Source of the DNA: a virus
Lineage: Duplodnaviria > Heunggongvirae > Uroviricota > Caudoviricetes
Strand: one strand, 5' to 3'
IMG/VR virus record: IMGVR_UViG_2778261499_000009
Location: 1-14,225 of that record
Length of the DNA stretch: 14,225 nt
A program made the translations under genes and the position numbers. Positions 9,193 through 14,225 of this stretch are shown here, one piece after another; the stretch's first letter is position 1; each line of letters opens with the position of its first letter. The notes beneath the pieces were generated by a model that did not search any database, was not told the origin of the DNA, and worked only from the letters and a program-made list of their open reading frames with translations.

Positions 9193-10050
9193 TTATCGTT
9201 TATTTCTTTGATGTTTCTTTGCAGACTCAGCTTGAGTGTTTCCATACCTGCGTTTACCGCTATTGTTTTTTCCCCTAGGCTTGCCTTTTTTTCGATCTTC
9301 CCACCAGTCAGGTGCCGGGTCTGGCTCAACATGTAAAGCATCGGCAAGTCCTGATATCAAGCTGTATGACTGAACTCCATCAATGTGCTCTGACAGTGAT
9401 GGGGTAACATTCTGTCTTAGTGGATCAAGAATAAAATCAATACCTTTAATTCTGGCGTGTTTGGCGGCAGGCACAAAGTCTGAGTCCCCAGCAACAAGGA
9501 CAATTACATCAACAAGTTTTTCATAAGCTAAAGTCGTGATATCCATCCCTAGCTTGATATCAACTTGTTTTTGTTTGATGTCATAGTAAAAATCATCATT
9601 TGTCAGTTCATCCCATTTTTTCGTTCCTTTCATCAGAGCATCAAGGGAGAATGTAGTTAGTTGCCATCGCTTATTATCAACAAGATTCCCTAATCTTAAG
9701 GCTGTTTTTCGAGTTTTTCTTAACTCTTCATGCAGCTCCGTTCTCAGAATATATGATTTTTCGAGTTTGAAATTCTTGCGACCAGGCGTCTTATTGCCAG
9801 GCTCAGGAAGTGGAAGGCGTGTTTGAATGTCGAGTGGTGGACAGTCATAGAAGTAAATTCTATAAAGCTCAAGCGGTTCCCTACGTTCTTGTGATTGACG
9901 TTTTCCATTAAGATGGGAAAGAACCATTGACCATATTACTTTCATTATGCATTGCGCAGTCAGTTCATGCTCGGCGAAGTGTTTACGATGCGTAGCATGA
10001 ACACGCTGCATGAAAAAACCCGCATCAATTAAAATTGCTGCTTTCTTCAT
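9193..10050 (-). CDS. NYN/LabA-like (PIN-fold) nuclease-domain protein with Lys/Arg-rich C-terminal tail, in the rexAB position
   Basis: 285 aa; N-terminal MKKAAILIDAGFF and downstream VDVIVLVAGDSDFVPAAKHARIKGIDFI match recalled NYN/LabA hallmark motifs; tail RKKGKPRGKNNSGKRRYGNTQAESAKKHQRNKR is highly basic. Lies between cI and the timm-like terminator, where lambda carries rexA-rexB. No resemblance to RexA or RexB. Confidence 0.65.
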   Translation of the reverse strand: MKKAAILIDAGFFMQRVHATHRKHFAEHELTAQCIMKVIWSMVLSHLNGKRQSQERREPLELYRIYFYDCPPLDIQTRLPLPEPGNKTPGRKNFKLEKSYILRTELHEELRKTRKTALRLGNLVDNKRWQLTTFSLDALMKGTKKWDELTNDDFYYDIKQKQVDIKLGMDITTLAYEKLVDVIVLVAGDSDFVPAAKHARIKGIDFILDPLRQNVTPSLSEHIDGVQSYSLISGLADALHVEPDPAPDWWEDRKKGKPRGKNNSGKRRYGNTQAESAKKHQRNKR

Positions 10051-10177: not shown

Positions 10178-10894
<717 letters not shown>

Positions 10895-10982: not shown

Positions 10983-11192
<210 letters not shown>

Positions 11193-11300: not shown

Positions 11301-11333
11301 ATACTTACATATGGTTCGTGCAAACAAACGCAA
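11301..11333 (-). promoter_or_regulatory. pRE with cII-binding TTGC-N6-TTGC repeat
   Basis: Minus strand TTGCGTTTGTTTGC (plus 11320-11333) overlapping the cII start; -10-like AAGTAT (plus 11301-11306). Confidence 0.6.
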
Positions 11334-11607
11334 CGAGGCTCTACGAATCGAGAGTGCGTTGCTTAACAAAATCGCAATGCTTGGAACTGAGAAGACAGCG
11401 GAAGCTGTGGGAGTTGATAAGTCGCAGATCAGCAGGTGGAAGAGGGACTGGATTCCAAAGTTCTCAATGCTGCTTGCTGTTCTTGAGTGGGGTGTCGTCG
11501 ACGACGACATGGCTCGATTGGCACGACAAGTTGCTTCGATTCTCACCAATAAAAAACGCCCGGTGTGCAAGACCGAGCGTTCTGATCAAATACAAATGGA
11601 ATTTTAA
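11311..11607 (+). CDS. cII: cII transcriptional activator (lambda type)
   Basis: From the ATG at 11311 (SD TAAGGAA upstream): MVRANKRNEALRIESALLNKIAMLGTEKTAEAVGVDKSQISRWKRDWIPKFSMLLAVLEWGVVDDDMARLARQV... matches recalled lambda cII; the C-terminal few residues differ. The track ORF begins 60 nt upstream. Confidence 0.95.
   Translation: MVRANKRNEALRIESALLNKIAMLGTEKTAEAVGVDKSQISRWKRDWIPKFSMLLAVLEWGVVDDDMARLARQVASILTNKKRPVCKTERSDQIQMEF
11548..11579 (-). terminator. oop-like antisense terminator overlapping the cII 3' end
   Basis: Minus-strand reading: stem CGCTCGG / 9-nt loop / CCGGGCG (one mismatch) followed by TTTTTTATT; position as for lambda oop RNA. Partner promoter not identified. Confidence 0.35.
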
Positions 11608-11629
11608 CAACATCCAACGAGGTAATTAT

Positions 11630-11902
11630 ATGCGAAACAAAGGCTTTAATCCACCTGATACACACAAAGAAGCTAAGCGTTTGCGCTTCCTTCGTTCCAT
11701 TGATGAAAGAACTCAAATCTCTTTTGTGAAAGTTGCCAGAACTGAGCTTCTGAAGGCTGAGGCGAGGGCGTTGCTCCCGTCTCTACCAAAAGAGGAGGGA
11801 TATACGTTCATTCCAAACGCATTTCTGGAAAAGCTTCTCAAAGAAGACATATCCGTAAGTCAGTTTAACGATGTTCTTAAGGTCTTTCGTCAAGGCAGGT
11901 AG
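11630..11902 (+). CDS. hypothetical protein inserted between cII and the replication initiator
   Basis: 90 aa from the ATG at 11630 with GAGG 9 nt upstream (MRNKGFNPPDTHKEAKRLRFL...); the longer track ORF (11318) overlaps cII out of frame and is not credible; the stop is followed 2 nt later by the next start. Confidence 0.55.
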   Translation: MRNKGFNPPDTHKEAKRLRFLRSIDERTQISFVKVARTELLKAEARALLPSLPKEEGYTFIPNAFLEKLLKEDISVSQFNDVLKVFRQGR

Positions 11903-11904
11903 TT

Positions 11905-12852
11905 ATGAGCAATACAGCAAAAATCTACGATTTCAGCGCCGCACACGAGCGCAGGAGCAACAGGATGGAGAACCAGAAAACTGGTTACATTCCGTTGTAC
12001 CGGAGCATTCTGAAACAGTCATGGGCGAAAGATGTTTATCTTCGCACCCTGTGGGAAAACCTTCTCCTGAATGCCGCCAGAAAGCCATACAAAGCGAATT
12101 TCAAAGGTCATGAATGGCATCTGCAACCCGGTCAACTGGTTGTGACAGCAGCTGATTTAGGTCTTCAGTTATGCGACAGACATGGCAAGCCAGCAAGCCG
12201 TGATCAGGTTGAGCGGATGCTTCAGGTTTTTGTGAAAGAGGGGATGATCTCCATTGATGGAGAGAAGCAAAAAGGTCGTGTGATAACCATCACAAATTAC
12301 CATGAATATGCTCAAAAAATGGACAATTTACCCGCACATGAAGCCGCACAAACAACCGCACATGATGCAGCACATGACGAAGACAGTAATGGCGCGGCTT
12401 TCAGAGCACATGCCGCACATGAAAGCGCACATGAAGCCGCACAAACAACCGCACATCATGAACAAGAAGGTATTAACAAGAATATAAATAATACCCCCCT
12501 ACCCCCCAATGGGGGAGGCGATGGGCAGGTTAAACCTGAACGTCGCAAGGCAGAACGAATCGACTACGAATCCTTCCTGAACGCCTACAACACCGAAGTC
12601 GGTGACAGACTTCCACACGCTGTTGCGGTCAACGAGAAACGAAAACGCCGCCTGAAGAAAATCATCCCGCAACTGAAAACGCCAAACGTGGACGGTTTCA
12701 GAGCGTATGTCAGGGCGTTTGTGCATCAGGCCAAGCCGTTTTACTTCGGAGACAACGACACGGGCTGGACAGCTGATTTTGATTACCTGCTGAGGGAAGA
12801 TTCGTTAACTGGAGTACGGGAAGGGAAGTTTGCAGACAGGGGGATTGCATGA
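11905..12852 (+). CDS. phage replication initiator (O-like / P22 gene 18-like) containing the origin
   Basis: 315 aa; N-terminus [10 protein letters not shown] resembles lambda O MTNTAKILNF; position immediately before the helicase; a central low-complexity AHE/AHD-repeat linker is encoded by the iteron DNA; stop overlaps the helicase start (ATGA). Confidence 0.7.
12330..12520. repeat. ori-type iteron cluster + AT-rich tract + C5/G5 palindrome inside the initiator gene
   Basis: GCACATG-containing units recur at least six times; an exact 30-bp direct repeat CGCACATGAAGCCGCACAAACAACCGCACAT occurs at 12333-12362 and 12427-12456; followed by AT-rich GGTATTAACAAGAATATAAATAATAC and CCCCCCTACCCCCCAATGGGGGAGG. 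Confidence 0.65.
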
Positions 12853-14225
12853 GACAGGATATCGAAGCGAGCGTTATCGGTGGCCTGCTGATTGGTGGAT
12901 TAACACCAACCGCCAGCGACGTTCTGGCAACGCTGGAGCCGGAAGCGTTTTCAATTCCGCTCTACCGGAAAGCCTTCGAGGTTATCCGCAAGCAGGCGAG
13001 AAACAGAAACCTAATCGATGCGCTGATGGTTGCCGAGGCGTGCGGAGAGGAGCATTTCACGTCAATCCTGATGACCAGCAAAAACTGCCCGAGTGCCGCA
13101 AACCTGAAGGGATATGCCGGAATGGTCGCGGATAACTATCACCGCCGTCTGGTGCTGGAAATCATGGATGAAATGCGTGAACCAATTCAGAGCGGAACCA
13201 TCGACGCATCGAGTCAGGCGATGGATGAGCTTGTAAAGCGTCTTTCAGCCATCAGAAAGCCCCGTGACGAGGTTAAACCGGTACGGTTAGGGGAAATCAT
13301 CACCGACTACACTGACACGCTTGACAGGCGTCTGAGGAACGGAGAAGAGTCAGATACCCTGAAGACCGGAATCGAAGAACTTGATGCCATCACCGGAGGG
13401 ATGAACGCGGAAGACCTGGTGATAATCGCTGCTCGTCCTGGTATGGGGAAAACCGAACTGGCGCTGAAGATTGCCGAAGGCGTTGCAAGCCGCGTTATTC
13501 CTGGTTCTGACGTCCGGCGCGGAGTGTTGATTTTCTCGATGGAAATGAGCGCATTGCAGATCGCAGAGCGAAGCATTGCCAACGCCGGGAGGATGTCGGT
13601 TAGCGTACTGCGAAATCCTGCATCGATGGATGACGAGGGCTGGGCACGTGTTGCTAACGGAATGAGTCAGCTTGCAGATTTGGATGTATGGGTGGTCGAT
13701 GCCTCGCGGTTATCGGTCGAAGAAATACGCTCAATCGCAGAACGGCACAAACAGGAAAATCCAAACCTGTCACTCATCATGGCGGATTATCTTGGCCTGA
13801 TTGAGAAGCCGAAAGCAGACCGCAACGACCTCGCAATTGCTCACATCTCAGGAAGCCTTAAGGCGATGGCGAAAGACCTGAAAACTCCAGTTATCTCCCT
13901 GAGTCAGCTTTCACGCGATGTTGAGAAGCGACCAAACAAACGCCCGACAAACGCAGATTTGCGTGATTCAGGAAGCATTGAACAGGACGCAGACTCAATC
14001 ATCATGCTCTATCGGGAAGCGGTATATGACGAGAACAGTAGCGCCGCGCCATTTGCTGAAATCATCGTGACGAAAAACCGTTTTGGCTCACTTGGTACGG
14101 TTTACCAGCGGTTCTGTAACGGACACTTTGTTGCATGTGACCAGGATGAAGCCAGACAGATTTGCACAGCATCAAATGCACCCGCTGCACGTGGCAGACG
14201 ATATGCACAAGGGGCTGACGTATGA
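12849..14225 (+). CDS. DnaB-family replicative helicase (P22 gene 12-like)
   Basis: 458 aa; Walker [17 protein letters not shown]; DnaB-like C-terminal RecA-fold motifs ([19 protein letters not shown]); SD AGGGGG 5 nt upstream; stop codon is the last 3 nt of the window. Confidence 0.9.

Follow-up and report, generated by a model that had tools for sequence, protein, structure and literature searches.

orf90, a conserved small gene between cII and the O-like initiator of lambdoid phages, with a C-terminus that resembles the start of an O-type initiator

Introduction

Small ORFs in the slot between the oop region and the replication initiator of lambdoid phages have already been described (PMC3349717). 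In lambda, the antisense oop RNA is transcribed from the promoter pO and down-regulates cII (PMC3349717). Lambda naturally lacks the orf48 gene found in P22, and a lambda/P22 hybrid with its junction within pO has also been described (PMC3349717).

P22 orf48 encodes 48 aa (DUF2740, PF10872; phrog_1913) and is the first gene after c1/cII, the slot considered here. In both P22 orf48 and a 47-aa relative from O157:H7 prophages, the start codon lies on the oop promoter's −10 element, while the stop codon overlaps the start of the initiator gene. The P22 record annotates an oop promoter overlapping the orf48 start, and a DnaB-type helicase gene follows the P22 initiator. The P22 RefSeq record (NC_002371) and phrog_1913 label this 48-aa early-operon ORF, located between c1 and gene 18, as a "tail protein", a label that is implausible and looks like a propagated annotation error. 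HK97 gp53 and HK544 gp45 (phrog_1331) occupy the same slot; they are small and basic and overlap the start of an O-like gene, which is followed by a DnaB-type helicase gene. As in P22 orf48 and in the gene described below, pO overlaps the start of HK97 gp53.

No function has been reported in the searched literature for the small ORFs of this slot, including P22 orf48, HK97 gp53 and the gene described here, and a literature search returned no paper mentioning DUF2740. The name "orf48" in accessory-gene screens refers to another gene, and the supplements of those screens contain no peptides of P22 orf48 or of the gene described here.

This study concerns a 14,225-nt stretch of phage DNA, referred to throughout as the window, in which the slot is occupied by a 90-codon gene, orf90. 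It is the first gene after cII and oop, carries pO over its start and lies directly upstream of an O-like gene. orf90 thus belongs to a recurrent, already described class of small slot ORFs, and its family is catalogued as hypothetical. New with respect to the searched literature are the strong purifying selection acting on orf90, its strict association with modules consisting of an O-like initiator and a phage helicase, and the evidence that its C-terminus is an initiator stub.

Gene organization and expression signals

The early region of the window is lambdoid. A lambda-type cI (10178–10891, minus strand) and cro (10992–11192) are followed by these elements:

11311–11607, plus strand: cII (PF05269, E 3.8e-48), whose stop lies 22 nt 5' of orf90
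11619–11622, plus strand: Shine-Dalgarno sequence GAGG of orf90, 7 nt 5' of the ATG; GAGG or GGAG is kept at homologous loci
11630–11902, plus strand: orf90, 90 codons (phrog_2519), encoding a small, basic, helical protein, as supported by selection data and an AlphaFold2 (AF2) model (pLDDT 83.7)
11905–12852, plus strand: O-like replication initiator (PF04492, phrog_345), beginning 2 nt past the orf90 stop
12849–14225, plus strand: phage DnaB-type replicative helicase, reaching the last base of the window; annotated "replicative DNA helicase" in JEP4 and HK544, with Pfam DnaB matches at homologous loci

The ATG of orf90 is at 11630 and its TAG stop at 11900–11902. The original prediction of a 90-aa ORF between cII and the initiator, preceded by GAGG and ending 2 nt before the next start, was accurate in every coordinate. 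It had also stated that O directly follows cII in lambda; this is correct, and compared with lambda orf90 is a truly additional gene.

The O-like start at 11905 was accepted because the N-terminus of the encoded protein matches MTNTAKILNF of lambda O, in protein as well as DNA sequence. In several relatives (JEP4 (L001) 4335; L005, L006, L010 4336), the O-like gene is called from an internal ATG, 60 nt past its probable real start. Such calls, made by public annotation and gene callers alike, hide how closely the orf90 stop and the O-like start are spaced.

No plus-strand promoter-like site was found between pR and orf90, and no plus-strand terminator was found after it. The sole sigma-70-type match upstream of orf90 on the coding strand lies at the expected position of pR. 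orf90 would therefore be read as an early gene of the rightward (pR) operon, translated just before the O-like initiator, and the spacing of the two genes, 2 nt apart or overlapping, probably couples translation of O to that of orf90. The suggestion that orf90 might be a moron finds no footing here, given the missing promoter and terminator of its own, a GC content (0.43) similar to that of neighbouring genes, and the probable translational link to O.

The oop-like RNA and the pO-like promoter

Opposite the end of cII and the start of orf90, the minus strand carries a counterpart of the lambda oop transcription unit:

11547–11618, minus strand: oop-like RNA of ~72 nt, antisense to the cII 3' end; its ends are predicted from alignment with lambda oop and from the terminator
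11553–11583, minus strand: intrinsic terminator of the oop-like RNA, a hairpin with a T run after it, located inside the 3' end of cII
11625–11630, minus strand: TATAAT, the −10 element of the pO-like promoter; it overlaps the start codon of orf90 and is invariant at all orf90 loci
11648–11653, minus strand: candidate −35 element TGGATT, suggested by sequence, with a 17-nt spacer; a weak match (3/6) within codons 7–8 of orf90

The terminator is homologous to that of lambda oop, and compensatory changes affect 9 of the 11 pairs of its stem across 10 phages. An Rfam search of the whole window gave no match, so the identification of the oop-like RNA rests on the lambda alignment, the terminator and this covariation.

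In lambda, the −10 element of pO overlaps the O start codon, and the −10 in the window has the equivalent position (PMC6022878). The two units also share a terminator inside the 3' end of cII, but differ in the gene whose start codon bears the −10, which is O in lambda and orf90 in the window, where the hexamer is a perfect TATAAT. The RNA of the window is predicted to be ~10 nt shorter at its 5' end than lambda oop. Codons 1–8 of orf90, which lie over pO, have a synonymous divergence (pS) of 0.43 versus 0.75, as expected of a double constraint by promoter and protein.

The claim that orf90 overlaps the oop region holds for the promoter, which extends over codons 1–8, whereas the oop-like RNA itself lies upstream of the gene. 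The further idea of a one-off insertion into this region is contradicted by the intact terminator and pO and by the position of the orf90 start on pO, as for the start of lambda O. Judged from sequence comparison, orf90 takes the place of the 5' end of lambda O and leaves oop undisturbed.

A degenerate lambda-pO-like copy, recognized by eye, is present on the minus strand at the O start of the window (11895–11925), with CATAAC in place of CATAAT. This copy would fit a duplication of pO together with the gene start, followed by decay of the second site.

Distribution and purifying selection

A search of 5.8 billion clustered proteins yielded 34 relatives of orf90, and exhaustively searching 1.84 billion representatives with a profile returned 15 proteins at E ≤ 0.001. 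The family is small and enterobacterial; its members have ~90 residues, share 41–100% identity and keep the frame, the length and the C-terminal end. At the DNA level, copies with 99–100% identity are present in CUS-3, JEP4, TL-2011a and 49 Stx2/Stx2a-converting phages, while Kapi1, Gally and HF4s encode proteins of 98–99% identity. Among 5,426 complete E. coli genomes, 278 (~5%; at least 80% of the query covered) carry the gene, annotated as a hypothetical protein; carriers include UTI89, ST131, APEC and EPEC strains. The comparison with relatives that had been proposed alongside the original prediction found the gene conserved down to 41% identity, with the order cII–orf90–O kept.

orf90 matches phrog_2519 ("unknown function") over its full length (residues 1–90 against profile positions 1–90, E 1.9e-57), and all 19 aligned family members match this profile. 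A Pfam scan gave no match above threshold and an NCBIfam search none at all; a PDB sequence search returned only a chance match (E 1.4), and the PADLOC defence-system library gave only JetB (E 0.021), which was judged to be chance and not a credible match.

orf90 is a real gene, beyond a chance ORF, and its protein is under strong purifying selection. Pairwise comparison of five diverged copies gave saturated pS values of 0.40–0.82 and nonsynonymous divergence (pN) of 0.06–0.32. The dN/dS ratio, given where dS could be estimated, was 0.06–0.17, below those of cII (0.08–0.38) and O (0.22–0.34) and similar to that of the DnaB helicase gene. Seven diverged DNA copies are open in this frame only. 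Across these copies, 85 of the 90 third codon positions are variable, compared with 54 first and 40 second positions (pS ~0.75, pN ~0.25). Both halves of the protein are constrained, with pN of 0.24–0.28 at saturated pS.

Chimeric relatives were noted among P0043, P0024, P0023 and P0030. One, of 52 aa, combines a Cro-like N-terminus with the C-terminal motif of orf90; others join orf90 N-termini to unrelated sequence, in P0024 to the C-terminus of a helicase. The latter type are probably deletion derivatives in decaying prophages.

Protein features

The product is basic (18 K/R versus 12 D/E) and, in the AF2 model, mostly helical, in line with the original prediction. Built from an alignment of 19 sequences, the model (pLDDT 83.7, pTM 0.62) comprises helices at residues 10–23 and 26–51, a short hairpin at 53–59, and helices at 63–71 and 76–87; a run with 12 close sequences only gave a pLDDT of 57.6. 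Foldseek searches of the confident model against PDB and BFVD returned nothing below E 0.6. Two segments of the gene resemble known families:

11654–11713, plus strand: codons 9–28, weakly similar to P22 orf48/DUF2740 (HK..R.RFL.S motif)
11789–11896, plus strand: codons 54–89, similar to the O-type winged-helix domain over its first strand and two helices

Residues 54–89 (KEEGYTFIPNAFLEKLLKEDISVSQFNDVLKVFRQG) can be aligned with the beginning of the winged-helix domain of O. Positions 6–39 of PF04492 are matched by 16 of the 19 family members (best E 5.2e-5), and phrog_678 ("replication initiation O-like") is likewise matched by 16 of the 19. The orf90 protein of the window scores 14.6 bits (E 0.048) against PF04492, below the Pfam gathering threshold of 28.7 bits. 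Aligning the family with six O N-termini using hhalign gave E 0.0034, in the register of the PF04492 match. The hidden Markov model (HMM) of the 39 C-terminal columns was searched against 1,734 six-frame ORFs of the collected loci. Its top non-family matches were the O N-termini of HK97 and HK544 (E 4.3e-5), followed by lambda O (E 0.09); P22 gp18 was non-significant (E 1.3), and the O of the phage's own locus was not matched among these ORFs. The stub therefore resembles the HK97/lambda type and not the resident initiator. The statement that the product belongs to no nameable family thus stands insofar as no named or characterized family applies, but is partly superseded by the resemblance of the C-terminal 36 residues to an O-type N-terminus.

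With the lambda/HK97 O domain (PF04492), orf90 shares the pattern G-Y/F-x-x-I/V-x-N ... L-L ... D-L-S/T-V-x-Q ... R in one register. It differs in stopping just short of the recognition helix and wing. A complete winged helix spans ~95 positions, of which orf90 covers only PF04492 positions 6–39, and the AF2 model places just two short helices after the hairpin. Ending before the recognition helix, orf90 cannot bind DNA as the O winged helix does. It also lacks the iteron-bearing linker, with its internal origin, and the C-terminal domain for recruitment of a helicase or loader. Both are present in the next gene, a complete O gene.

The N-terminal similarity is weak. Residues 9–28 (PDTHKEAKRLRFLRSIDERT) align with DUF2740 positions 10–29 (hhalign E 0.0067 over 20 columns, a marginal value). 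phrog_1913 is matched by 10 of the 19 family members (best E 0.0024), while hmmsearch gave a weak E of 0.28, and Pfam scans of orf90 and its family members returned no PF10872 match. A relationship of this segment to DUF2740 is suggestive. P22 orf48 itself is half the length of orf90 and has no O-like C-terminal module.

The slot and its replication modules

orf90 was compared across eight sequence-distinct contexts (the window with its near-identical JEP4 and Stx2a copies, and the groups L005; L006–L009; L010; L011; L017; L018; and L019/L020). The order cII, ~20 nt, orf90, O-like gene is found in all eight, and the O-like start lies 2 nt past the orf90 stop or overlaps it by 4–8 nt. A DnaB-family helicase gene follows the O-like gene in all seven contexts where the contig extends that far, and the immunity genes upstream of orf90 differ among contexts. 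orf90 coexists with at least three types of O N-terminal (origin-binding) domain, including the lambda type in L019, and with two C-terminal types.

The reverse comparison reveals the same components without orf90. In Klebsiella and Yersinia phages, the O N-terminal domain of the window occurs with a lambda-type C-terminal domain and a P-like loader, and the slot holds a 265-aa regulator or a KilAC antirepressor. HK544 has a nearly identical O C-terminal domain and a near-identical helicase, the helicase region lying within a match averaging 96.6% nucleotide identity, but it carries the HK97 gp53 gene in the slot instead of orf90. The 53-aa HK97 gp53/HK544 gp45 protein has no detectable sequence similarity to orf90. 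Given these varied O domains and the HK544, Klebsiella and Yersinia arrangements, orf90 goes with O plus phage-DnaB modules, with no single component as its obligate partner. Across phages, the slot thus houses unrelated genes: HK97 gp53, DUF2740, the KilAC antirepressor and the 265-aa regulator.

The window and the O157:H7 prophages share identical sequence from the cII 3' end through ATGCGAAA (window position 11637). Past this breakpoint in pO, the prophages carry the 47-aa DUF2740-type ORF, and their initiator differs and is accompanied by a toprim primase-helicase, so that this DUF2740 relative, unlike orf90, precedes another replication module. The mosaic breakpoint is visible in the alignment of window 11560–11637 with L015 3001–3078, where divergence sets in 8 nt into orf90.

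The O-like gene of the window contains a repeat array:

12320–12495, no strand assigned: iterons with a 12-nt period (12320–12474) and an AT-rich stretch, inside the O-like gene

The iterons form two blocks, with repeats such as CCGCACATGAAG and CCGCACAAACAA, and the AT-rich stretch follows them. The array is the probable replication origin. An iteron-like copy, GCCGCACACGA, was also seen near the O start (11938–11948). No iteron copies were found within orf90.

Possible origin of orf90

A slot ORF of ~50 codons plus O codons ~22–58 adds up to ~90 codons, which makes orf90 look like an in-frame fusion. A small slot ORF may have been joined in frame to 5' sequence from an O gene of the HK97/lambda type, and the fusion may have been cut off where a complete new O and helicase module joined. 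On this view, orf90 would be the fused remnant of an ancient swap of replication modules, retained ever after by strong selection on the protein. In the exhaustive search of 1.84 billion representatives, no match exceeded 164 residues except two proteins of ~2,000 and ~2,500 residues, which matched over short stretches only, and no O-like protein with the orf90 N-terminus was found. Since no extant full-length initiator has this N-terminus and synonymous sites are saturated, the fusion would be old and its product retained by selection.

Two other origins were considered and rejected. Recent truncation of an extant gene would leave a longer O-like protein bearing the orf90 N-terminus, and none exists among the matches; a frameshifted piece of the present O gene does not apply, as O keeps its own conserved N-terminus.

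Possible functions

The reading we favour, though only tentatively, gives orf90 an accessory role in replication by O and the phage DnaB, exerted through protein–protein contacts. It may tune assembly of the initiator or the helicase at the origin. A role in replication is the best supported because orf90 appears to be expressed with the initiator, is confined to O plus DnaB modules, seems initiator-derived and is under strong selection. Counting against it are the fold searches of PDB and BFVD (E ≥ 0.6), which offer no structural tie to replication, the fact that orf90 is not the obligate partner of any single replication component, the sub-threshold similarity to O (14.6 versus 28.7 bits) and the marginal similarity to DUF2740. 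If orf90 modulates replication initiation, it could change how many phage copies arise after induction and thereby how much Shiga toxin is produced.

A role apart from the phage's own replication is rather unlikely. As an accessory gene of a variable slot, orf90 could serve host takeover, counter-defence or inter-phage competition, for example as an O stub that poisons lambda/HK97-type initiators. The unrelated genes that share the slot, the occurrence of each replication component, taken singly, without orf90, and a C-terminus closer to HK97/lambda-type O than to the resident O are all compatible with this. However, orf90 was never found away from O and DnaB in the seven contexts long enough to show this; it apparently lacks a promoter of its own and would be expressed with lytic early genes only, and the defence library contained no credible match. 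Should orf90 act on foreign initiators, it would represent a new form of prophage–prophage competition.

The original prediction had also raised a part in the lysis–lysogeny decision; orf90 would then act on cII, oop or the repressors. The constant position of orf90 ~20 nt past cII, the pO promoter within its first codons and the basic nature of its protein could be read in this way. The O157:H7 prophages argue otherwise: there, the cII 3' end, oop and pO −10 found in the window precede another small ORF and another replication module, which makes the link between orf90 and cII a positional one. Moreover, orf90 is probably coupled to O and not to cII, and the model predicts no complete DNA-binding fold. 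A search for cII boxes (TTGC-N6-TTGC) found only pRE at 11320–11333 and none in orf90. Nothing was found in support of a regulatory role of this kind, which we regard as improbable, and the existing evidence ties orf90 to the replication module.

A more speculative and quite improbable variant takes orf90 for an exapted initiator stub, a fragment of an ancestral lambda/HK97-type O that a module swap fused to a slot ORF and that would now act as a decoy by pairing with O-type initiators. Such a decoy could set the timing and stoichiometry of the origin complex of its phage, or it could poison initiators of lambdoid phages that share the host or superinfect it. On this reading, orf90 would constitute a protein-level replication-incompatibility factor among prophages, Stx2a phages included.

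That orf90 is instead a functionless evolutionary scar, open only to carry pO and to bring ribosomes to the O start, is very improbable: the reduced pS over pO, a stop–start layout suited to translational coupling and a chimeric make-up resembling a recombination by-product agree with it, but a mere leader ORF would not keep its amino acids as both halves of orf90 do, nor would it be expected to show a dN/dS below those of cII and O or a confident AF2 fold.

A neighbouring NYN-domain gene

Directly downstream of cI, in the position of lambda rexAB, the minus strand of the window (9193–10050) encodes a 285-aa NYN-domain protein (PF01936, E 6.8e-9; phrog_5783). Its PADLOC matches are weak (HEC-09, E 2e-4; NYN, E 1.4e-3). 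From these matches and its location, this may be a prophage-expressed defence gene.
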